This document shows, piece after piece, positions 27,376 to 64,000 of a DNA stretch of 64,000 nt. The notes below the pieces were generated by a model that made no database searches, was not told the DNA's origin, and was given only the letters and a program-made list of their open reading frames with translations. The stretch is from Macrostomum lignano. Taxonomy: Eukaryota. The stretch covers positions 95,929 to 159,928 of the forward strand of contig NIVC01002941.1 of assembly GCA_002269645.1 (NCBI GenBank), in the 5' to 3' direction. Both the position numbers and the translations under genes were made by a program. Position 1 is the first letter of the stretch; each line of letters starts with the position of its first letter.

Positions 27376-28151
27376 CAGTAGAAAAATATCGTTATGCTTT
27401 GTACAAGTATTAAATATTTGTAAGCTGAATCACAATTTTTGTTAATGAAATCATTCTGATTTTCTTATATACTGAGTCCTGTTCTTTAAATAGTTTAGGT
27501 TTAAAGCGTTAATTTGCGTTGGCAAAGCGAAAGAAACTCTGGTGTCTTCTTAATTTAGTATTGTCCAAGCCAAGCTTTTCTATAATCCTAACTTTTGCTG
27601 CATGTACTACTTCTATTTTTGCCCCACCAGTAGTTGTAGTGGCATATGCGGTCATTCTGTTTCCGTTATTTTTGTTTTACAGATAAAAATTGTGCACCTT
27701 AAATACATAGTATTTTTATTATTGACACATGCTTTTAATGTCAATAAGTGCGTTTCATTTCTTATCGAATTTTATTCGATCCTGAAGGCTTGAGTCTGTC
27801 TGTTTCTTTAAGCCAATAATTTTAAGTGTTTTAATCTAGGATTTATTATTTGGCATCTGAGATCTAGGATCTGGGATCTGGGATCTAGGATCTGGGATCT
27901 AGGATCTAGGATCTAGAACCTGAGATCTAGGATCTGGGATCTAGGATCTGGGCTCTAGGATCTGGGATCTAGGATCTGGGATCTGGGATCTGGGATCTAG
28001 GATCTGGGATCTAGGATCTGGGATCTAGGATCTGGGATCTAGGATCTGGGATCTAGGATCTGGGATCTAGGATCTGGGATCTAGGATCTTGGATCTAGGA
28101 TCTGGGATCTAGGGTCTGGGATCTAGGGTCTGGGATCTAGGATCTGGGATC

Positions 28152-29044
28152 AGCTTCAAAAAGTGTGGAGTGCTGTTGACTCCTATCTGATTGAGCTGAC
28201 TGTCGAGGAGGGAATCTCCATCGGCATTGAGCGGATGGTGCTGCGAAGCACATTCGTTCTTATTGCTCCTAGCAGCGAGGAGGACGCTCGGCAGCTGCTC
28301 CAGCGGCTACCGACGGTCTCCTTGGATGCTGACCTTGGTGGAGCTCTTTTTCTTCGCGAGGGCCAGCGTCCAAAGACGATACCCTACGTGGTTTTCGTTC
28401 CTGCTAAGAGCACCGCAGCTGGACCAGACGTTATCCGCCGGGTCCTACTGCGTCTGAACCCCGACCTCCCTGCTAGTGGACTGGTGTATCACCGCCGAGT
28501 CCGCAGGGGGGAGACGGGCAACTCAATTGTCCTCGGCCTTTCCAACGCTTGGGCGAGTCGGTACCCTAATGGATCCTCTTTCCAGCTGGGTGCCCTCAAG
28601 CTCAAGATGCGCCGAGGAAAGTCTGCCAAAGGGAAGGCTACTGCCAACCCCGGCATCTCCGGCAAGAGCGGGGCGCAGTCTAAGGCCCAAGGAAAGGCGC
28701 AAGCCGATCCCAAAGCCAAAGCTGCGTCTCGCCCTTCTGCTAGCAGCAGTTCGGCGACCGTGGTAACGGCTCCGGCCAAGCCCCGGGAACCAAACCTGCC
28801 AGTCGGAGAAGGAGTTGAGGACGAGGCCGGGTCTTCGGAATCCGAGCTCTCCTCGGCCACCCTGGTGGGGTCTGAAGGTAAAGATGCAGATGAGGAAGCT
28901 TCCTCCATCCTGTCATCGGAGCCTGAGGACTCTGCTGGGGGGGCCGGTGGGAGTGAGGAGGCCATGGACGTCGACCAACTCCCATCTCCCAGTCAAGCCC
29001 CAGCGGCCTGGGACGAGGACGATCTGTTGTCCAAGTCTCCTTGA
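28152..29044 (+). CDS. LINE ORF1, 5'-truncated; DUF4780-like region plus acidic/Ser-rich tail, no CCHC knuckle
   Basis: Open from the junction (SFKKVWSAVDSYL...RVLLRLNPDLP...GNSIVLGL). Resemblance to Loa-clade ORF1 is recalled from memory, not searched. Confidence 0.65.
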
Positions 29045-29083
29045 TGGCCCTGGGCTCTAGCCAGACACTGCATTTAATACAGT

Positions 29084-32000
29084 ATGACTAAGCTCCACGC
29101 TGCCAAAGGAGCGACATTCTGTCTGCAAATAAATTTACAGCATTGCGTATCTGCGTCAGTAAATCTGATGAAGATTGCTGAGCTGTACAGGCCAGGCCTC
29201 ATCCTGATCCAGGAACCCTGGATGCGCAACGGTAAGTTGCCCAACATTCCCTCTGGCTACTCTGAATTTTATGTGTGTGGCCCGGGGAACAACCGCCCTA
29301 GAGCGGCTATCCTCGCTGCTAGCCATCTCCAGGCTTGGCTGAGGACTGATCTCTCTGATGGAGACCTTTGCGTCATCCAATCTAATAATTTCTCTCCGCG
29401 TACGTGTCTTGTTGCCTCGGTTTATATCCCAGGCGACAGAGACCCTGCTCCTGAGAGTTTACTGCGCCTCGCGCAGTACTGCGAGTCCCAGAACGCTGAG
29501 CTGTGCTTAGGGGGCGACCTCAACGCGCACCACAAGCACTGGGGCAGCAAAGATACCAACACTAGAGGAGAGGAGCTTCTGGCCCTCATCTCTAACACAA
29601 ACCTCATGCTCTGCAACCGCGGCAGCACTCCTACCTTTAATAATGGCAGATGGACCGAGGTCCTCGACGCCACACTCGTTACCCCAAGATTCTTTGACAG
29701 AGTTGAGGAGTGGTGAGTCTGGTCTGAGGAGCCCTCCCTGTCTGACCACTGCTTTATCGCCTTTAATATCGCGGACACTAAAACCCAGTCTCCGATCACT
29801 TGGAGGCGCAATATCCGCAACACTGATTGGGCGGCCTACAAGGCTGCCCTTGATCTGCACCTGCAGGAACTCACGGACTTACGTCCGATTGAGACCTGCG
29901 AGGATGTGGATCATATGGCTGAGACGCTGACAGGTTGCATTATTGCAGCCTACGAAGCGGCTTGTCCTGCTCGCGCCTACAAAGGCAAGACCTCGGCGCC
30001 GTGGTGGAACCCGGAGCTGGGGAAACTCAGGCGGAAGGCCAAAAGCCTTCATCGCCGTGCCATGAAGACCGGAAACCCGGAGGACATGGAGCTTTTCCGG
30101 CAAGCCTCCCGCAATTTCAAATCTGAAGTGCGCAAGGCCAAGGAATGTAAGTGGCGCCAATTCTGCAATGAATTGGATCAAGACAGACCTACTTCTAGGC
30201 TTGTCAAGGCCCTTACAATAGACAAAATTTCCAAATTAGCCATGATCAGAAAAGATGATGGCTCTCTTACTAAAGACCCTGAAGAAGTGCTTCAGCATAT
30301 GCTCAGCACATTCTTCCCGAGGGTACCTACTGCTAGACCGGAGCCCAACCATTCGATGGATGGAGCCACCCTAGCGGCGGGCATTGTCACTGAAGACCTA
30401 ATCGCTCGTGCGGTCAGAACCTTCAAACCCTTCAAATCTCCTGGACCTGATGGTATCTACCCTGTTCTCCTTCGTGAAGCAGCCAAGATACCCTCGTTCC
30501 TGAGACTCACCCGCAATCTTATGCGGGCCTCTATCCAGCTGGGATACGTTCCCAAATGCTGGACTGAAGCTCGGGTAGTCTTTATTCCCAAACCTGGGAA
30601 GGGTGACTACCAAAGCGTCAAGGCCTTCCGGCCAATTAGCTTAACGTCAGCAATGCTTAAGCTCACGGAGAGGCTTATTCTCTGGCGGCTGCTCTCCTGC
30701 GAGCTGACAGCGATGCCCCTCAGCAATAATCAGCACGCCTTCCGTACCGGGAGGTCGACTGACAGCGCCCTGCATGCGATTGTCGAGAAGATTGAACGGG
30801 CGGTACTGGGTGACGGTTACGCCCTGGCTCTCTTTCTTGACATTGTTGGCGCCTTCGACAACGTTATCTTTGAAGCGTTTCAGAGGGCCCTTCAAAATCG
30901 CAAAGCTCATGCTACCCTCATACGGTGGATCATGTACATGATCTCCAACCGTACGGTCACTGCCCAACTTCTTGGGCAAACTGCCTCCACCAGAGTCTGT
31001 AAGGGTGGACCCCAAGGCAGAGTCCTCACCCCGACGCTCTGGAACCTGGTCATGGACGCTCTTCTGAGTGACTCCCGACCCGACCCCGTCTTCAAAGTCG
31101 GGTATGCTGATGACGTCACGGCCATTGTGGCAGGACCGTCTCCCAGCACGCTCAGGGATCTGATGCAGAGCTTTATCTGCAAAGCAGAATCCTGGGCCAA
31201 TGACAATGGTCTGGAACTCTCTGAGCCCAAAACCGTTGCCATTATGTTTACCAGCAGACTACGCTGGAACATACGTCCTCTGCAGCTCTACGGCAGAGAT
31301 ATTGCCTTCGCGCACCAGACCAGATGTCTCGGGGTCACACTTGACCACCGGCTTAACTGGTCCTTCCACGTGAAAGCAAAAGCCAAGCGTGCCTCAGCCA
31401 TCCTGGCCCAGCTCCGACGAGCACTTGGCACTTCTTGGGGTCTATCCCCAAAGCGGCTTTGGTGGATCTATACTTCCGTAGTTAGACCTGCCATTACGTA
31501 CGCCTCTGTTGTCTGGGTTAGCGCTACCCAGGTCAAAAGCCATGCAGACCTGCTCAACAAGATCCAAGGCAGAGCGTGTAGGCTCATCTGCAACGCCACC
31601 AGGTCCACGCCCTTTGCTGGCATGGGGGCCTTCCTTAATCTACCGCCTCTTGACCTCTTCGTCAGGGGTGAGGCGGCTAGAACGACGCGGCGTCTAATTG
31701 ATGCCGGCGTCAAATTCATTTACATGAGAGCACCTGCTAAGCGGAACCTTGTCCCGCATAGCGACCTGTGCCTCAACTTTCTCAACGAGTGTCAGGCCAA
31801 TCGCGTCTTCACCGATGGCATTGCCTCAACGCTCAACCTGAGACAGCGCTACTCCGTAGCTATCGACTCGCGCGATAACATCAATGACCAATGGAACCTT
31901 GGTGAGCTTCATTGCTACACCGACGGTTCTAAGCAGTCAGCCAACACCGGCTTTGGTGTTGGAATCTTTCTGAACGGGAGGGTCATCGCTACCCACGCTC

Positions 32001-32828
32001 AATACACTGGGGTCAACTCCAGTGTTTTCCAAAATGAAGTTCTGGCAATCAGCTCCTGCACTGCAGAGCTTCTCGCCACTGGCGTTATTGGCAAGAACAT
32101 CATTTTCCATTCGGACAGCCAAGCTGCCTTGCACGCCATCAGTGGCTGCAGCACCAACTCTGCTACAGTCCTTGACTGTATCAAACTCCTCAATGTGTTG
32201 CGTTCCGCCAACAAAATTACCCTTAAGTGGGTTCCGGGGCATGTGGGGATCCGAGGAAATGAGTTGGCTGACTGACACCCTTGCAAAAGTTGGTGCCTCC
32301 GGCTCCTCTCTCGGCCCCGAACCCCTTGTCCCGATTCCTGGCTGTGTCATCGACTCGCGCATCAAAGCGTGGATCAGGACTCAGCACCGCTCGACTTGGG
32401 CGAACCGCACGAACTGCAGGCAATCCAGAGGCGCTGTCCCTCAGCCCTCTCACCAGCTCCGGAAGCTCCTCTTGCGCCTCTCGCGCAGAGACATCCGGGC
32501 TGCCACCATGACCCTCTCTGGTCACGGCTGCTTCTCCAGGCACCAGTACCTGCAGGGCAACGCCAACAACGCCACCTGTAGTTTCTGCAACTCAGGTGAC
32601 GAAACTGCTGAGCATTTCGTAAGCATCTGTCCCGCCTTCACGCGGGCCAGACTCACTTACCTCGGGCCACACACATGTATTACTGAAGCGTGCAAACCCG
32701 AAAACTTTAATCAGCTCACGCGCTACCTTCGGGCCACCCGCAGGGCTGAACTCTCCTTTCCAGAGAGCACTATAGCTGCTGGCGACACTGGGGGACCTCC
32801 CTGGGCGGCGCCAACCCTCCGTCCATAG
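29084..32828 (+). pseudogene. LINE ORF2: AP endonuclease, reverse transcriptase, RNase H, CCHC; two lesions
   Basis: LQINLQH, GDLNAHH.HWGS, SLSDH (APE); KSPGPDG, FRPISL, GYADD (RT); YTDGSK, HSDSQAAL, WVPGHVGIRGNELAD (RNase H); CSFC...ETAEHF...C. In-frame TGA at 29714-29716; duplicated TGAC at 32269-32276 gives a +1 shift. Confidence 0.92.
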
Positions 32829-50139: not shown

Positions 50140-53100
50140 TCAGATCTCTTTCAACCGATTCTCCAGCTCAGGAAAGGCCATTAGCAGCAGCATTTTGTTA
50201 TACTTCATGACGCTTTTCACCGAGTCAAACGACACGGAATGACCTGTGAACCAGGTGCGCCTGAAGCCCTGCACTTGGTCAAGGATTCGCCACAGAACCC
50301 CATCGGCGATTTCCGGTATGGTGTATCGAGGCATGTAGTTGAAGGTTATTGAGGCCAGGGTGTCGCCACTAGCCAGGGGGTCGTGAGCTTCCGGCGCTGT
50401 CTGCAGGTCGCTGCTTGAGCCTTCCGAATTGGAGTAGCCTGACAGGTAGTAGGCTACGATGGTGGAGGAGGCTGGAGTCTCCGGGCTTCGATTGAAATCT
50501 GGCGAGTTCAGAGCCAGTTCGGAGTTGCGAATGGCCAGGAGCCGATCGAGACTGGGGCTGCGGATTGCCGTGCGGGGGTTGATATTAGGGGGGTGCAGAC
50601 TGTGAGTAGAGGGTGTAACTGTGAAGGATCGCCACAGAGGGTGTAGAATGTGAGTTGAGGGTGTAGACTGTGAGGGGAGGGTGTAGACTAATAGTAGAGG
50701 GTGTAGAATTTGAGTGGAGGGTGTAGACTGTGAGTGGAGGGTGTAGACTGTGAGTGGAGGGTGTAGACTTTTAGTGAAGGGTTTCGATTGAAGCTAGAGA
50801 TGGAGCTGCTGCAGACAATGGATTTCCATCACATACTTCTCCGTGTCCAGCTGGTCCAGGTAGTAGGCCACAGGGTGGGCCGCCACTTCCGGTTGACCGG
50901 AAAAGCGCACCAGCTTAGTCAGAAACTTTCTGGACTTCAGTCTGGAGAACACATCCTTCTCGGCCGGGGTCAGGTCATCCAACAGGCCGCCCGTGACCGC
51001 CTGCGCGCTGGGAGTCCACACCAGCCAGTCCACCGTCTCCATGCTGTTGTCAAAGAATCGAATCTTGATGGGACGACCACCGCCACCACCGCTCCTGCTG
51101 ACACCAACGACACGACTGTTCATGCGGAACTGCACACCGCCAGCCAGCTGGAGACGGTCGCGCGCCGACTCCCAGAAAGTCTGGGTGGATAGAATTCAAT
51201 AATAACGATATGAAATGAGAGCTAAGATGGCCAGTTTACACTCTGGTGCTTTGGAGTGGGGTAGACTTTGGATTGAAGACAAGATCGTCAATGTACAGTC
51301 TAGCTTTGGTGGTATTGGGGTGGGGTAGGAATTAAAGATAAGCTCGCCTATGTACAGTCTAGCTTTGGTGGTATTGGAGTGGGGTAGGAATAGGAGATAA
51401 GATCGCCAATGTACAGTCTAGCTTTGGTGGTATTGGAGTGGGGTAGGAATAGGAGATAAGATCGCCAATGTACAGTCTAGCTTTGGTGGTATTGGAGTGG
51501 GGTAGGAATAGGAGATAAGATCGCCAATGTACAGTCTAGCTTTGGTGGTATTGGAGTGGGGTAGGAATAGGAGATAAGATCGTCAATGTACAGTCTAGCT
51601 TTGGTGGTATTGGAGTGGGGTAGAAATAGAAGATAAGATCGTCAATGTACAGTCTAGCTTTGGTGTTATTGGAGTGGGGTAGAAATTGAAGACAAGATCG
51701 TCAATGTACAGTCTAGCTTTGGTGGTATTGGAGTGGGGTAGAAATTGAAGATAAGATCGCCAATGTACAGTCTAGCTTTGGTGGTATTGGAGTGGGTAGG
51801 AATAGGAGATAAGATCGCCAATGTACAGTCTAGCTTTGGTAGCATTGGAGTGGGGGAGGAATCGAAATGGGTTGAAGATGGCAAGTAGAGCAATCTGTAA
51901 TCACCTAATACAGAGCACAAGAATGGTCGGGCGCACCTGGAATCCCTTGCGCAACATGCCGAGCCTGGACTCCTTCCGGGGCACCAGCAGGTCAGTCAGG
52001 TAGGCCTCCGACATCCACATGAGTCCGTAGAGAGCGGAGGTGTCGCTGGGACTGCCGTAGCCCATGGCGGTCATGCCGAACAGAAAGTAGGGCTCCAGAG
52101 CCAGCAAGCCGTTCTTCTCCAGATAGCTGAGCGCGCTGCAGTTCAACTTGGCCAGCGCCTCGCTTGACGGCTGGGCCAGCGGGAACTCCAGGAAGTCCGG
52201 CTGCTGGGCCGGATAGAGCTTTGAGCGCAGGCGGATGTAACGCTGACTGGCCTGCAGAATGTGCTGCTTGACCTCCTCATCGGATGCGTTGGGCCGCAGC
52301 GTTGGATCCAGGCGTCGAACCCTGCCGAACACGAACTGCTCAAGGTCCATCTAGAAGTTGGAAAAGTTTCTTTCCTAACTTACGGATTTGCCACTTACTG
52401 GAGTGGTTGGAACCGTGATCGGAGACAGTTCTGCTCATTCCACTGCCTCCTGAGCACACAAGCACGCCAAGACTGCACGCAGGCACCCACTCGTGCACAC
52501 GCTCACACAGAGTGCACAGGGGCGCCAGCACCAGGGGCTTTAGCACCAGGGGCGCCAGCACCAGGGGCTTTAGCACCAGGGGCTTTAGCACCAGATGCTT
52601 TAGCACCAGGGGCGCCAGCACCAGAGGCGCCAGCACCAGGGGCGCCAGCACCAGGGGCGCCAGCACCAGGGGCGTCAGCACCAGAGGCGCCAGCACCAGG
52701 GGCGCCAGCACTAGGGGCGTCAGCACCAGAGGCGCCAGCACCAGGGGCGTCAGCACCAGAGGCGCCAGCACCAGGGGCGCCAGCACTAGGGGCGTCAGCA
52801 CCAGAAGCGCCAGCACCAGGGGCGTCAGCACCAGAGGCGCCAGCACCAGAGGCGCCAGCACCAAGGGTGCCATCACCTGGGGCGCCAGCACCAGAAAAAC
52901 TTGTGAACCAGCGCAGGATCAGAACAGCGCAAAATTCAGTGCTACTGAAAACTCGCAAGTTTCGAGTTCAGGATCGCGGCCGACAGCTCATACCTGGCGA
53001 GCGGATGGCTCAGACGATTCTCTGATCACCGCGGCAGGCAGGGTGGCTTCATCCAGATCGTAGCCGATGCCCTGAGCCATGCGGCGCAGGTCTCGGTAGT

Positions 53101-53383
53101 CGCTGCTCACGTAGCAGGTGCCCAACTCGTGCGGCAGCGGGTCCGCCTCCGAAACCTTCAGCGTGACGGAGCGCCCGCCGACCCGGCCGGAGGACTCCAG
53201 CACAAGGAGATTCTTGAAGCCCAGACTGCGGAGCAGGTAGGCCATATGCATCCCGGCTGGGCCGGCGCCCACAATGGCCACCCTCGAAGACCGGCTGGGC
53301 CGCTCGGCAGCTGTCGGCAGGCAGGCGGCGTCATGGTTGCTAAGCAACTGCAGCAGCAACAGCAGCAGCAGTGATGATGTCAT
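50140..53383 (-). CDS. Secreted FAD-dependent oxidoreductase of the flavin amine-oxidase superfamily, PUFA-isomerase (PAI/PFI)-like; join(minus) 53383-52994, 52350-51937, 51180-50837, 50557-50140; 521 aa
   Basis: Signal peptide MTSSLLLLLLLQLL; VAIVGAGPAG, LESSGRVGGRS, HELG, TAMGYG, C-terminal FNYMPRY...VQGFRRTWFTGHSVSFDSV. Three GT-AG introns with phases 0, 0, 2. AATAAA on minus at 50034-50029. Confidence 0.88.
50590..50780. repeat. 20-bp intronic minisatellite (GAGGGTGTAGACTGTGAGTG)
   Basis: Direct inspection. Confidence 0.85.
51255..51860. repeat. 59-bp intronic minisatellite, about 10 copies
   Basis: AGCTTTGG recurs at 51361 and 51420 (period 59). Confidence 0.95.
52516..52895. repeat. 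15-bp intronic minisatellite (GCACCAGGGGCGCCA)
   Basis: Direct inspection. Confidence 0.95.
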
Positions 53384-53969
53384 GCTTTATCACTCGCCTT
53401 ATAGTCTCTAAATCAGCTGTTAGGAATAATTAGTTTAAATGAGTACAATTAGCAGGCTAGCAAGCGCAAACTCTGCTGTGAGAAAAGACTTAATAAGGGC
53501 CTATAAGTCGAGGCTCTTATCGGAAACCCCCCACCCCCTAATGCAGCAGCTCAATGGGCCGGCCCCTGCCATGTGTTATTGTTCCATTGTTTGAAGGCAA
53601 AATAATTTGTGACAGGAGTTGGCGATTATTTATGACTGATAATAAAATACTCACGATTCCAGAGTTCGACCGGATTGCCCCCCATGCGGGATTGCGTGCG
53701 CACTACTTGAAATTAATTCTGTCACTTTTTGCCAGGCGTTGTTGCTATTTATAGCTTTAGTTGACGTTTTACCGGCCCGCGAGATATGGCATGAGTTCGT
53801 GGAGGATCGCGGCAAAATTTGAAGTGCCATGCACTTGAGAAAAAAACTATTATGGCCGAGATTTGAAAAGCTGCACGAAATTATTCCACGGCTGATTGAA
53901 CTGCTCGAAATCTGCGCAATTTTACCAGCAGGGATCGACTTTCGAAAAGCCAATGAAACAACAAATTAA

Positions 53970-56285: not shown

Positions 56286-58049
56286 CCTGCATCTTTATAC
56301 TCTGGCAGAAATTGAGACAGAGAAAGCAGAAGCGAAGAACAACAATACGAGTATAAGCACATGCATAAGCAGAAATGGCATGCAAATGTAGATTGTCTCA
56401 GAAAGTGTTCAGACAGGCCAGCCGTGAGCACCTCTGAGATCTCAGCAGCGCCGGCAGAAGCTGTAGATCACCAGGAGGCAATAAATTAGAGGGGTCGGCC
56501 TTGTAGGGACGGGGAATTTAATCAGTCCTGGGTCTGCTATGGATTTTGTACATGCGAGCTCACGCGGGGCGTCCCAGAGGCTGGCTGATATATAATTACC
56601 TCAATAGCCATAAAACACGATTTCCAGTCTTTACAAGGCCGCCGATTCTTGTTTTTCCATCGATAAATAAAATTCCGCACTGACTACTTGCAACTGAGAC
56701 TGGCAAAAAATTAATTAATTTGATAACTATGCGAGACAGACTGCACGTTTCTTTTGGCTCAAAGGTTGTTGGAAAAATTTATTGCAGAAAACCGCTGCAT
56801 GGGAATTGCATATAGGACTCGCCATCTTCATTGGCTCCTGGTTTGGCAGTCCTGAGCCTTGATCATCAGTATATTAAACTCTCTAGCCCTTTCGACGATT
56901 TATAATTTCGAGCTTGTGACAGCTAACCCTTTTTCGACTCACCGATATGTTACGTTAAACAATTTTTAAGGCAGTTTTTTCACGAAGAAACGCATGCACT
57001 TTTGCGAGTGTTTCTTGAAAACAGAAACCTGCATCATTACGCTCGTAACAGGAAGCAGCACCTGGATCAGTTGGCGTGCTATCAAAAGCTTCTGCGGCAT
57101 TGCAGGAAATCTGAGGAATTTGCTTGGCTTCCAGAATGCACAAGTTAATTAACGCTGGCCCCGATCGTGCAGCCCTTTTCACAATAGCATGTAGCGGAAG
57201 TACTCGAAATTCAACAATTTCTGCAAACACGTCCAGCTCACTAATTAAATCCCAGCTACTCACTTGTCTGTTTTCAATCGATCCGAAGGGATCTATTTCA
57301 GTAGTATGGGATAACAGAACTCTGCCGCAGGAATTTCCGTGGAAAAGCCATGGGCCCTAGTGAGTGAACATACGGGCCTATGTAAATCCATTGAGCGACT
57401 CTGCCGCAGGGCAGGCCATGGAAATTCCGTGAGACCTCCTAGTGAGAGTACATTGGTGCAAGTATTTGCGAATGGGGTGGGGCTCCGCGGGAATTCCGTT
57501 AACCGCAATGAATGAGTATTGGCAAATGCGTGTTCTGCTACGACGGACACAGGCGGTTCGGTTCATAAAACCAGGCAATGCTTTGCTTCTGAATGACATT
57601 TAATATTCCATCGGGTATCGTAAAAGGAGGAGGGGCGTGTCTTTATTTCAATGATTACAATAAAATCAATTTGCAATTCATGTCTAAAATTTGAGCTACC
57701 AACTGTTGAAAAATCACTTGATTTTGGAATTTAAGGATTTTGGAATTTTGGAATTAATTGAAACTTTTGCCTATTAATTAGGCAAAAGTTTCAATAACAA
57801 GATGCTGCTTTAATAAGATTATAATAGCCAAGCATCTCCCCCTTTCTTGGGGTGGTGGGTGTGTTGCTAAATGGAATTGGACGCTCAATAATTATCAGTT
57901 TTATTGCTCCCCAGTCTGGTCGGGAGTTCCAGTTGGCGGCAAGTGCAAAGGAACTTTTGTACATGTATGCTTTCAATAGAGGCTCTGTATCTGGGTTTTC
58001 TAATAAAATTATTTTAAAAAACCGGTTTCTGAGACGGCTGGGTTACTGA

Positions 58050-58141
58050 CTGTAAACATAGCTAAGCTGTAAACATAGCTAAGCTGTAAACATAGCGGCT
58101 ATGTTTTTATTAACACAGATTCGAATAAGCGAGGTATATAA
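58050..58141 (+). promoter_or_regulatory. Candidate promoter: three CTGTAAACATAGC repeats, an inverted copy, and a TATA box
   Basis: 17-bp period from 58050; AAACATAGC-G-GCTATGTTT palindrome; TATATAA at 58135-58141, ~95 nt before the ATG at 58237. Confidence 0.4.
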
Positions 58142-58236
58142 GACACCGTATACTTGAATACGGGACATAAGTTTCTACTTCTAATTTGAATTTAACTTCA
58201 ATTTGATTTTTCTATTCAAACATTAAAAAATTTGGA

Positions 58237-59415
58237 ATGAATAAATCGCGCTGCCCTTCATATGTGTACGAGGTATGCATTTCCTGCAACTCATGTGAGC
58301 TCGGTGGCTTAAAACGTCACAAAATGAAAAGCAGCTGCAATGTCAGTCGCTGGCTGCTTTGCCACGAGTGCCAGACGCGTGAGCTCTTTAATGTGCGCCA
58401 GCAAGTTCGAGCTCACAAAAACCACATTATTATTAACTGGAGCTCACCTGGAGATTTAAAACGAGCCCGCTTTGCTGCCTTGGAGGCTGCCCAGCGTCAA
58501 GAGCAGCTCAACATTATCGAGCGCAGTCGAGCACCGGTCAGCGCACTCAGCCAGACAATTCAGGGCGTCTTTCAGCAGCCTGATGAAGATTTTCAGCACG
58601 CTACCGATGCAAACTTTGATCTGCTTGCCGCTGCACTTGCCGCTGTGGAGCAGCAATCAGATTTTTTTGGTTCAGCCGCTGCGCCAGCTGCTGATGCCGG
58701 CCTCCCAGCTGACGGTGCCGGCCTTCCAACTACTGATGCCGGCCTCCCAGCTGACGGTGCCGGCCTTCCAACTACTGATGCCGGCCTCCCAGCTGACGGT
58801 GCCGGCCTTCCAACTACTGATGCCGGCCTCCCAGCTGACGGTGCCGGCCTTCCAACTACTGATGCCGGCCTCCCAGCTGACGGTGCCGGCCTTCCAACTA
58901 CTGATGCTGGCCTCCCAGCTGACGGTGCCGGCCTTCCAACTACTGATGCCGGCCTCCCAGCTGACAGTGCCGGCCTTCCAACTGCTGATGCCGGCCTCCC
59001 AGCTGGCAGTGCCGGCCTTCCAACTGCTGATGCCGGCCTCCCAGCTGACGATTCCACTGGTTTTGCAGCTCCTTCGGAGTTGGATACTGCCTTCTTCGAG
59101 GATGTCGATTTGGAGCCTGTTGAGCTGGCAAATGAAGAAGCTGAGCAGCAACAGATGCCACCCTACAGGCCTGTTCCAGTCGCAGGAAAAAATATGGAGC
59201 AAGCCAGAATGATGGCAGAAGCAAGCCTATCCGATCTCCTGCGAGAATTCGAACCTCCTACTCCACCGGCTGCACCAGAAATCCAAACCGGTGACATCCC
59301 AGTCGTAGAAGCCATGCCACCGATGCCACCGTCAGTCTGCATTCAGCTGGTACTACCGAGCAGAGTCGAGGGCGAGTATTTTATTGACCTTGGGGAGGAA
59401 CTCGCATTCGCTTAA
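58237..59415 (+). CDS. Hypothetical 392-aa protein: Cys/His-rich N-terminus, ~9 x 13-aa repeat, acidic C-terminus
   Basis: Single ATG-to-TAA ORF with long non-repetitive coding flanks; the 39-bp repeat (~58690-59045) preserves frame; AATAAA at 59615-59620. Confidence 0.6.
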   Translation: MNKSRCPSYVYEVCISCNSCELGGLKRHKMKSSCNVSRWLLCHECQTRELFNVRQQVRAHKNHIIINWSSPGDLKRARFAALEAAQRQEQLNIIERSRAPVSALSQTIQGVFQQPDEDFQHATDANFDLLAAALAAVEQQSDFFGSAAAPAADAGLPADGAGLPTTDAGLPADGAGLPTTDAGLPADGAGLPTTDAGLPADGAGLPTTDAGLPADGAGLPTTDAGLPADGAGLPTTDAGLPADSAGLPTADAGLPAGSAGLPTADAGLPADDSTGFAAPSELDTAFFEDVDLEPVELANEEAEQQQMPPYRPVPVAGKNMEQARMMAEASLSDLLREFEPPTPPAAPEIQTGDIPVVEAMPPMPPSVCIQLVLPSRVEGEYFIDLGEELAFA

Positions 59416-60117: not shown

Positions 60118-63100
60118 ATGGCCACCTCATCGAGTCAAGAGGACGAGCCGGTGGACCCAGCTGTCAGCCACGAATTTGGACCGAGTGGTAAGTTTTTTCA
60201 TTCCATTGCTGGTTTTATGAACTCATGCATTTCTGTTTGTTGCATTCCTGTCTCTTAGCAACGGAATTATTTATATTTTTCTCGCCTACACAACAATTCC
60301 CAAATGGTTCCCAACAGGATTAAGCCGGAGAACTCACAATAATGAGACATTTTTATTCCTCATTAGATGAATTGACAAAAATGCGAAAGCAGAACTCCAT
60401 CTATTTCTTCAATAATAACTCTTCAAATTCTTTTTTTACACTTATACGTAGCTCGTATTGATTAATAAAAAATATTAAATCTAGATATAAGGTAGTAGGA
60501 TAAATAGTATACTCGTAAGTGTAAAAAAGGGCAATAAAATATTCGACTTCCATAACTCCCAGAGACATTTCTCATCATTTCCACTTTCCATAAATATTTT
60601 TAATACTATCTTCCCTTCTTCAATTGTAGGACCTTCATTCACCCTGGCGTTAAAAACCAGCGCTCACGAAGATGTTCTTCAAGTTCATCGATTTACACCT
60701 GGAGCTGCCACTGAAACATTCGAGTTTCTCGATTTCTGCAAAATCGCAGTGCAGCAGTGTCTTGAAATTCGCTTCGACTCTTCGGATAATTGCTCTGTTA
60801 AAGCTCAGATCAAACTGAATTTGCGCATGGTCAGAGTGCAGGCGTCAGAAGCTGTCAAGGGGGAGGATAAATGGATGAGCACACAACTCGGATTGGTGGT
60901 AGATATACAGGAGTTTGATGATTGGTGGAGACAGCAGTTTACAGAGCTGGAGCGCAAAGTCGATGTCTACAACACCAACGGTAGTGGCTGGATAATTGAA
61001 AAAATCAATTTTTTTGAACTTTACTCAGCTCTCGTCGAACGAGTTTCCTACTACACGGGGCATGCTGCGGAATTTATTCTACCGACTCCACTTCTTCGGA
61101 AGAAGGCGGTTATTTGTCCTCCAAGCAATGGTGTAAATTGCTTTCTTTACGCATGCCTTGCTTTTCTGCACAAGGAAGACAACAAAATAAAGAAATCAGC
61201 GCAACGCGAGTCTTCCTACACTGACTGGCTGGATGAACTTAACATGAGTGGAATTGACTTGCCAATCAATGTCACCGACCTTTCCATTGTTGAGAGACTG
61301 AACCCGAGACTTTGCTTCACGGTTTTCATCTGGGAGAAAGAGAGCGCTCAAGTCCTCCGCTTGCCTACTGCAGCTACAATTAAAGATCGAGAAGTTGTTC
61401 TACTCTTATTTATTCCACCATCAGAAGACGAGGCCTCGGGTCATTGGTGTGCTGTTTCAAGCATCAACAGGCTTCTTAATAGCAAGGCAGCTCTGCATCG
61501 GCGGAAGTGGTGTGAGCGCTGCTTGCTGCCCTTTCATAGTGATGCAGCCTTTGAAGAACACAGCCGAGCTCCTTGTCAACCTGGAGTGATCAACGTCAAG
61601 GAAGAGTTGCCAGATGAAAGGAATAATATTCTCCGATTCTCATCATGGGAAAAAACAATTAGTCCGCCATTTGTTGTTTACGCCGACTTCGAAGCATTGA
61701 ATGCTCCATGCCAAGAAGATTCGATTGCTGGTATAGCAACGAAGAAGTTAACTGAGCACATTGCTGTTGCTGCTGGCTACATCGTGCTGCACAGAGAAGG
61801 GATGACTGGTCTAGCGCCCAGAGGAGCGGATGATAAAGTGAGCACTTTTGTCAGCGACGATCCTAATAAGTGCATTTCCGATTTCCTGCAATCGCTGGAG
61901 AAGCTCGCTCGTGAAGTTTACGGCTGGAACACGGAGTTCAGTCGACAAGCAGCGATAAGAACAGAGATGGCAGGGCGACAGTTCAGAGAAGCCACAGCTT
62001 GCTGCTATTGTAGAAGCGAATTCACGGAAGGGTCCAATAAACATTGGGATCACGACCACCTCAGCGGAGAATTTCGGGGAGCTGCGTGTGCTGATTGTAA
62101 TATGAAGGCCAGACTAAAGAGGTCTTTCCTTCCCGTCGTGTTCCACAATTTCAAGGGGTACGATCTCCATCTCATGATGTCATCCGCTTTGGGTCTGATG
62201 GAGGGTTGGAAAATCTCCGTCATCCCTCTGAATCCAGAGCAGTTTCTGTCGATGAAAATCGAATTTAAAATCGGCGAGTATGAGAGTGAGGGCAAGATCA
62301 AGCCTTTAAATTTTACTATTCAGTTCATTGATTCGAATCAATTTCTTAATGCCAGCCTCTCACAGCTCATCAAAAATTTACCAGAGGCTGAATGTCGTAT
62401 CACTAGTCGCCTACGCAGCAGCAGATTCCCACTGCTATCATCCGAAGTGCTTTTCAGCAAGGGAGTTTTCCCGTATGACTATCTTAAAAATTCAGACGTG
62501 CTGAAGGATGCCGTGCTTCCCAGCCAAGAGAGCTTCTACAATGCTCTGACTAAGAGCCACTGCACCAACTCTGACTATGAGCATGCTCAACGCGCCTGGC
62601 GAGAATTTCAGGTTTCAAATCTAAAAGAGTACATGCTGTGCTACCTCGAGCTCGACATCAGGCAGTTGGCTGATATTTTTGAAAATTTTCGCAAGATCAG
62701 CATGCAAGAGGATGGCCTTGATCCAGTCCATTTTATTTCGACACCAGGCCTATCATTCGCTTCGGCATTGAAATCCATCAAGTCAGGGATTGAACTGCTA
62801 ACAGATGCGCAGATGTATTCGCTGTTTGAGCGCGGCATTCGCGGCGGCATGTCGTTTGTTAACATCCACAAAGTGCAGGCTACCTCAGCAGCGGGCGCCA
62901 GCACTGGTGTTGACAGCAATGAGGATGTTGATGGTGGCACTCCTACTATTCATGCTGGCCTCACCGAGCTTCTTGCTGTGGATGCAAACAACCTGTATGG
63001 ACAGGCGCTCACTATGAACTTACCAGTCGGAGGATTCCGTTGGCTGGACGATGATGAGCTGCTTTTGTGGACTGAAGATCGCATTCGAGGACTCAAGCTA

Positions 63101-64000
63101 ACCGATCCACTCGCCTACCTCTTTGATGTTGACCTTGAGTATCCCCCAGAGATTCACGAAACCACCGAAGACCTACCATTTGCACCGGAAAAGGCTGCCC
63201 CGAATTTCAGGGAATTTCCTGAATACATGCAGCAGCTGTGGGAAAAGGTCGGTACGGAGAACTCCACCTATCATCCGACAGAGAAGCTGATGCTCACTTG
63301 TCACGATAAGCCTTCCTATGTGGTTCATTCCTCTATTTTGGCGTTCTACCTGAACCATGGAATGCGGGTTAGACGCATCAATCGCATGATTGAGTTTCAC
63401 CAAGAGCCTCTCTTTGCTGCCTACGTCGAGAAAAATAGCCAGAAGCGGGCTGCAGCGAAAACCAACTTCGAAAAGGATTTCTACAAGTTAAAGAATAACG
63501 CGCTATTCGGCAAAACTATGGAGAATGTGCGAAAGCGGCGTGATATTCGAGTCTGCACCAACGTGGAAAAGGTAAAGGTACTGCTTGCCAAGCCGACAAT
63601 TACCAATTTTATCATAATTACTGATTCACTAAGCGTTTTGGAACTGCAAAAGACAAAATTAAAGCTCGATCGGCCTATTTTTATCGGGCAATGCGTCCTA
63701 GACTTTTCGAAAATGATTATGTACGAGCTGTTTTACGACAAACTGAAGCCCTGGATAGAGAACGATGGAGGTGTCATCAAGCTATGCGGTGGTGATACCG
63801 ATTCTTTCTTTCTCTCAATCAGCAACATGAGCGTTCAGTCTAAAGTTCTACCGCTGTTGAAGTCGAAGCAGCTGCTCGACACTTCAAACTATCCTCAAGA
63901 GCACGCGCTATTCTCGAATGATTTAAAAGCGCGACTTGGCTGCATTAAGGATGAAGCAGCCGGTGCTCGCTTTGAGGAGTGGCTGCTCCTAAGGCCGAAG
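60118..64000 (+). CDS. Protein-primed family B DNA polymerase (DNA_pol_B_2) with zinc finger and inserted EndoVII/HNH; join 60118-60187, 60630->64000 (3' partial)
   Basis: Frame open 60632-64000 (1123 codons, no stop). Motifs: GSGW (60980), WCERCL..F...EEH, YADFE (61679), CCYC...DHDHLSGEFRGAACADCN (~62000-62100), FHNFKGYD (62141), KGVFPYDY, DANNLYG (62981), KLKNNALFGK (63485), GDTDS (63791). Confidence 0.93.

Follow-up and report, generated by a model that had tools for sequence, protein, structure and literature searches.

The window analysed here, a 64,000-nucleotide stretch of contig NIVC01002941.1 from the flatworm Macrostomum lignano, ends inside a long uninterrupted polymerase frame of Polinton type. 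Which element does this frame belong to, how recently was it inserted, and do its parts share one history? An earlier reading, made from the letters of the window only, had reported 1123 codons running to the edge. These codons (60632..64000) were recovered within a stop-free stretch that begins at 60491 (1170 codons from stop to edge) and that, in the source contig, terminates 429 bases beyond the window, for a total of 1312 codons. All features described below are on the forward strand unless stated otherwise. The exonuclease motifs named in that reading were found at 61679 (YADFE), 62144 (HNFKGYD) and 62642 (YLELD), and polymerase motifs A, B and C at 62981 (DANNLYG), 63485 (KLKNNALFGK) and 63791 (GDTDS). 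In a Pfam profile search, the frame matched DNA_pol_B_2 (PF03175) above the cut-off (6e-17), as predicted, as well as Endonuclease_7 (5e-7). The PF03175 match is weak and partial, as would fit the Beta-class adintovirus trait of a PolB less than 30% identical to the pfam03175 type. Among 7988 candidates scored, 603 homologues were found at E<=1e-100. The catalytic residues of the exonuclease and polymerase motifs are conserved in 58-60 of 60 aligned homologues, chosen as every second of the best 120 listed.

The N-terminal region (60630..61460), a long stretch of the kind in which, as the earlier reading noted, the terminal protein usually lies, probably carries both a terminal-protein domain and a vOTU protease. 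A serine (60983), a cysteine (61139) and a histidine (61442) are each conserved in 57 of the 60 aligned homologues. They likely correspond to the domains of pPolB described in the available text of 10.1101/2024.03.18.585575, where the terminal protein precedes the vOTU domain; domain order, a conserved Ser beside a Gly, catalytic Cys and His, and an inserted homing-type nuclease domain are common to both systems. The 3'-5' exonuclease domain (61679..62660) contains an endonuclease VII/HNH zinc domain at 62000-62101, as judged from Pfam and the alignment. This insertion was considered as a special trait of the polymerase and rejected, since PF02945 is annotated in 105 of the 120 best homologues listed and the insertion is thus common. 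The polymerase domain, delimited from the frame and the alignment of homologues, occupies 62981..64000 and goes on beyond the window. Just past the edge, the C-terminus carries a poly-glutamine tract of about 40 residues, followed by a basic NLS-like tail.

The frame has its first ATG 113 codons in, and in six of eight other polymerase families of this genome the homologous frame has no Met before the conserved start. A likely first exon was identified at 60118..60187 (70 nt, 23 codons plus one base), with its ATG at 60118 and a GTAAGT donor. It would be followed by a 442-bp spliceosomal intron (60188..60629), with GT at 60188 and the acceptor at 60629; 60630 is the base directly after the acceptor, with which the 70-nt exon is in phase. 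The polymerase gene therefore probably starts at this small upstream exon, giving a predicted product of about 1,290 residues. A GT..AG joint 60186/60629 was seen in one contig, in one of four sequencing runs, with a short side of 28 letters that falls below the 31-letter bar. None of the runs used for joints is recorded as RNA, and introns and spacers are covered in several of them, so that read contigs are not informative on expression level. Genes free of introns, a trait of intact vertebrate elements (PMC8097293, available text), are not what is seen here, given the likely intron at the pPolB 5' end; this trait is not family-defining for Polintons outside vertebrates.

The left end of the element lies within the window. 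In two homologous contigs, the match to the flank reaches 57299, after which they run on with a single TATTTC and no element; in the window this 6-bp sequence is the left copy of the target-site duplication (57294..57299). Identity with sister copies starts exactly at 57300, where a 132-bp left terminal inverted repeat beginning with AGTAGT (57300..57431) was delimited from sister copies and right ends. It matches right ends at 96-98%; compared with its own matching right end, 4 of its first 132 bases are mismatched. The source contig stops 3.4 kb past the window. The right end of the insertion is found on another contig, C393, where it runs into TATTTC and the same flanking DNA; the integrase beside this right end matches that of a sister copy at 99-100% at the protein level. 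Five more insertions of the same family, F1, have matching 6-bp flanks. Two F1 insertions are assembled end to end (15.9 and 16.1 kb), and sister copies, about 16 kb long, are more than 99.9% alike.

Over about 7 kb, the window copy and five sisters are set apart by four gaps and no more than 0-3 substitutions, which argues for a recent insertion. The four gaps shift the frames of genes past the window, including that of a TATA-box binding protein (TBP). They are likely assembly errors, because one insertion that was assembled twice differs from itself by two gaps only and read contigs are gap-free in the TBP. A search with the polymerase gave 156 matches in 134 of 954 candidates scored. Together, terminal inverted repeats, 6-bp duplications, empty sites and the multi-copy state support the assignment, already proposed in the sequence-only reading, of the insertion as a young element of the Polinton/adintovirus type.

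Several other observations were made around the ends. In the left arm, a perfect inverted repeat of 17 bp (57757-57795) encloses a loop of 5 bases. A shortened copy (C3339:7222-16922) has two left arms face to face between matching 6-bp duplications, and gave no integrase or capsid matches. Contigs C2692 and C862 carry tandem partial duplications of element ends, either real or made by the assembly. About 4 kb from the insertion, a multi-exon host gene of the flavin amine oxidase type (50794-53386, minus strand) has long tandem repeats in its introns. Further away, a LINE-like region (28127-32825) is broken across several frames, the longest being 852 codons.

Between the left repeat and the polymerase, a first ORF (58237..59415) has a paired CxxC N-terminus with an LxCxE motif, a 42-bp tandem repeat and an acidic tail; it is Oncoid-like by position. 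No Pfam family matched it above the cut-off. Homologues are found 5' of the polymerase in six other families, and LxCxE in two of the five families with a readable frame. The 42-bp coding repeat (58684-59050) varies in number among near-identical copies, giving frames of 392, 402 and 458 codons, and one run lacks 336 nt of the region. A canonical TATA-like box, TATATAAG (58135..58142), precedes this ORF and would serve as its promoter. The same box precedes a PC4-like gene at the opposite end of the element; both outer F1 genes thus have TATATAAG.

The rest of the element was read in sister copies, where genes on the opposing strand converge on the polymerase. From the outside inwards, these encode the PC4-like protein (Pfam score just under the cut-off), an integrase (rve 2e-12, with a chromodomain), a probable minor capsid protein, a basic ORF, a probable major capsid protein, an adenain protease (Peptidase_C5, 4e-5, above cut-off), an ATPase with a Walker A motif and only sub-threshold Pfam matches, two ORFs without a named function, a small DEDD-looking gene and the TBP. 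For the DEDD-looking gene, Atlas matches are arthropod clusters, with Maelstrom as a lead. Hence, of the genes that had been expected downstream, integrase, protease and ATPase are present in sister copies, while capsid genes are candidates by position, size and conservation. The major capsid candidate (427 aa, strand-rich, 22 full or near-full relatives) gave a model with a pLDDT of 36 and weak, unusable matches to jelly-roll capsids. It had no PDB match, Capsid_N was matched in 1 of 20 members (0.03), and no relatives were found in viral contigs. The minor capsid candidate, located between the integrase and the major capsid candidate and assigned by position and size, had no Pfam match. The upstream exon, the left end within the window, the TBP and PC4-like genes, and the family mosaic described below had been missed in the sequence-only reading.

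PF00352 matches the TBP at 1e-22 in two stretches, corresponding to the two TBP repeats. All 35 matches among PDB sequences are TBPs, as are the top Foldseek matches of its model (pLDDT 60, poor domain packing). Canonical TBP and TRF2-like genes each have three loci in the host genome; the element proteins are about 24-29% identical to host TBP, and score 28-31% against one canonical TBP. Among 1.84 billion representatives, only five matches fall below 1e-30, four of them Macrostomum or Logan proteins and one from a metagenome. In a quick tree, nine element-type TBPs form one clade on a long branch, apart from host TBP and TRF2 (support 97). No relatives were found in viral contigs; of 376 metagenome TBP loci, 80 were kept (23-31% matches), none with another gene of the element. 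Where dS is measurable, dN/dS is mostly 0.05-0.26 in both halves. Judged from its sequence, the element TBP is divergent and under purifying selection.

Compared with cellular TBP/TRF2 (PF00352), the element protein has the two repeats, the TBP fold, the C-terminal Phe pair and the acidic stirrup in common, but it is small and stand-alone, and another gene overlaps its first repeat. Of the four Phe positions of host TBP, which we take to be those that intercalate in canonical TATA binding, two are kept, the C-terminal pair; the element TBP thus lacks the full set of four. The N-terminal pair aligns to a Pro (beside a Trp) and a Tyr, and one Asn is also replaced. Two TBP lineages, about 36% identical to each other, have both retained the C-terminal EPExF stirrup and the C-terminal pair of Phe. 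In both lineages, the tail of the upstream gene overlaps repeat 1 by about 330 nt in a second frame. Synonymous shuffles of repeat 1 leave this overlapping frame open 2-5% of the time. No purifying signal was detected in the overlapping tail, and repeat 1 is conserved at the protein level in other relatives too. In the source contig and some others, the upstream gene and the TBP are read as a fusion. A true fusion was rejected as a likely assembly error: the twice-assembled insertion is fused in one of its contigs only, and read contigs are gap-free. No splice joint into the TBP was seen in any of the four runs examined, which does not exclude one.

A candidate target for this protein emerged upstream of the converging genes. 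The word TAAGAA is found within 150 nt upstream of most starts (F1, 8 of 11; F2, 7 of 11), as compared to 17-20% of windows. Binomial values are 7e-5 for F1 and 2e-3 for F2, both post hoc since the word was picked from a listing of upstream sequences. In the F2 locus, TTAAGAA occurs 11 times (2.1 expected). TAAGAA is strand-biased, stands ahead of most particle genes and is used in both groups of particle genes described below. In F1 and F2 alike, the box is absent ahead of the protease and 235-codon genes, and F2 has further copies far from the listed starts. In beta- and gamma-herpesviruses, a viral TBP works with TATT late promoters. The element, known from sequence alone, has in common with that system a non-canonical box ahead of particle genes.

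We find it plausible, by a modest balance of the evidence, that the element TBP drives a late programme from the TAAGAA box. Alternatively, this protein would act as a decoy for, or modulator of, the partners of host TBP rather than as a late-gene switch, with host factors reading TAAGAA. The replacement of two of the four Phe positions and of one Asn would fit such a role. On the other hand, the EPExF stirrup and the C-terminal Phe pair have been retained across both TBP lineages, and the strand-biased box precedes particle genes with TATATAAG at the two outer genes, so that we hold the decoy role to be rather unlikely.

Do the polymerase arm and the particle genes share one history? Nine polymerase families, F1-F9, were compared; with one representative copy each and some arms taken from different contigs, their polymerases are 51-73% identical at the DNA level. 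The particle genes fall into two groups, a (F1, F5, F6) and b (F2, F3, F4, F8, F9). Within either group, identity is mostly 95-99% across the block that begins with TBP repeat 1 and ends with the minor capsid candidate; this block comprises repeat 1, the pre-TBP gene, the 235-codon ORF, the ATPase, and the major and minor capsid candidates. The protease is 97% identical in group a and 90-97% in group b, and the minor capsid candidate of F5 is an exception to block identity, at 89-90%. Between groups, the same genes are 58-86% identical. F7 shares only the ATPase to minor capsid part with group b. In both polymerase trees, F1 groups with F2 as its sister (support 1.0), and their polymerases are the closest of all, yet they belong to different block groups.

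The switch between block and arm falls inside the TBP. In 13 of 13 close pairs, divergence rises from 2-4% to 25-40% at codons 96-119; breakpoint fits gave codons 96-108 in the three group-a pairs and 115-119 in the ten group-b pairs. The two halves of the TBP hence have separate histories. For the F2-F3 pair, synonymous distance is 0.02 in the pre-TBP gene and 1.15 in TBP repeat 2. The five F7 pairs gave loose breakpoints. Repeat 2 follows the polymerase tree in part: F5 and F6 are close, as are F7 and F8, while F1 and F2 are not. On the right-hand side, boundaries differ by family, the integrase being common to F1/F6, F4/F7 and F8/F9 (for F3 none was recovered). Each family has its own terminal repeats, which are 48-95% alike among families. 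F2, F7 and F8 each have their own repeats at both ends and matching 6-bp duplications in a single contig, and in one F5 copy the duplication matches at five of six positions. The F1 junction was found in 12 contigs at 99-100% identity, and one read contig crosses it without a difference.

We therefore propose, with good confidence, that the window holds a recently inserted Polinton whose families pair divergent polymerase arms with near-identical blocks through repeated homologous recombination ending in their own TBP. Of its parts, the exchange itself between co-resident families, by double crossover or conversion, is the most secure and very probably real. As is known of Polintons, an excised linear form would be the template of the polymerase, with the terminal-protein domain, freed by the vOTU protease, as the primer, and the integrase would insert the product with a 6-bp duplication. 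Co-resident families may then swap internal DNA by double crossover or gene conversion, each presumably retaining ends suited to its polymerase. Exchange would pile up in the middle of the TBP, where the dual-frame repeat 1 may be the last high-identity stretch before the divergent arm, and the element TBP would drive late genes from the TAAGAA box. That the pile-up simply marks the end of a dual-coded stretch of high identity is the simplest account of its position, and one that we moderately favour.

Selection could instead hold the switch in place, keeping repeat 1 with its late boxes and repeat 2 with partners encoded in the polymerase arm. The five group-b families switch within about five codons of one another; repeat 2 is homologous (58-79% DNA identity) and under purifying selection yet never shared; and TAAGAA is found in both block groups. 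However, the two-frame overlap also ends at the switch; synonymous divergence is halved by this overlap (0.52 versus 1.05 for F1-F2), which would favour crossover there without selection. In addition, repeat 2 tracks the polymerase only in part. We consider it unlikely that selection fixes the boundary. We are slightly more doubtful still of a broader version, in which animal Polintons of this lineage would form a recombining swarm with a shared late-gene cassette and the TBP would be a switch of two separately inherited halves, repeat 1 with the TAAGAA promoters and repeat 2 with the replication arm. If it were true, any replicon taking up the cassette would gain a working, arm-matched late programme.

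The mosaics could also be artefacts, with the assembly joining arms of different elements through similar internal sequence. Contig C393 would be such a join: it carries the left end of an F6 insertion, whose duplication matches contig C219, and the right end of the window's insertion, so that at least one false or rearranged join passes through the block, either an assembly error or a real rearrangement between two elements. One insertion was assembled twice with two gap differences, and many copies end at contig ends. Against a general artefact, the terminal repeats and target duplications of F2, F7 and F8 agree between left and right ends, TBP variants specific to a family turn up in many contigs and the F1 junction in 12, blocks differ by 1-5% between families instead of being identical, and a read contig spans the F1 junction; we regard this explanation as very improbable. 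Weakest of all, the notion that the block merely evolves far more slowly than the arm, without exchange, gains something from the dual coding of repeat 1 and its protein-level conservation in other relatives, but there is a 50-fold difference between the synonymous sites of a single-frame gene and those a few hundred bases away, and the F1/F2 trees conflict, a topological conflict that largely refutes it.

How does this element compare with known ones? With Polintons/Mavericks and the proposed adintoviruses, as described in the available parts of PMC8502044 and PMC8097293, it has in common an OTU-bearing pPolB, an rve integrase with a chromodomain, an adenain protease and a packaging ATPase, as well as two converging modules, AGTAGT ends, a 6-bp duplication, a size of about 16 kb and the CxxC/LxCxE ORF 5' of PolB. 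Ends, duplications and sizes of vertebrate Polintons are given in PMC8097293, and Polinton capsid genes are defined in PMC4028283, as far as their available text goes. The Macrostomum element adds the TBP, the PC4-like protein and the likely pPolB intron. In the available parts of PMC8502044 and the preprint 10.1101/697771, TBP is named only in legends of figures on MELD viruses and related elements. A term search of the available text of PMC11071296 and PMC11131425 gave no TBP; one supplement file of PMC8502044 contains neither TBP nor Macrostomum, and the available supplements of PMC4028283 gave no motif match. In a search of openly accessible text, figures and Repbase excepted, we found no literature on Macrostomum Polintons, on TBP in animal Polintons or on block exchange within one genome.

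Polymerase and particle genes with different histories are also reported, in the available text of these sources, for nematode Polintons, with polymerase replacement (PMC10748475), and for the transfer of virion modules between Alpha and Beta classes (PMC8502044). Exchanges of that sort are deep and infrequent and cross classes or host phyla, whereas in Macrostomum lignano recent exchange links at least eight families in one genome, with one boundary fixed within a gene. The Polinton polymerase is thus a true but expected finding; the TBP and the fixed exchange boundary in its middle are what set the element apart. Family trees based on polymerases mislead here, nine polymerase families sharing two particle blocks, and the mosaic provides a dated account of DNA swaps among co-resident elements, with a boundary that lies within one gene. 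A young multi-copy family in a laboratory flatworm, having a TBP of its own and a candidate late box, makes it testable how animal Polintons control their capsid genes and whether they cycle as viruses to this day.

The genome holds other Polintons. In a third, distant lineage, the polymerase is about 30% identical and the genes of the capsid region are different; eight stretches examined gave no TBP match. A second lineage has a capsid about 40% identical, and its TBP, which follows the same upstream gene, belongs to a clade of its own with a metagenome relative. Two of its copies seem to lack capsid genes between integrase and ATPase. All its genes except PC4 are on the polymerase strand, and TATAAA or TATAAG words stand upstream of several of them.
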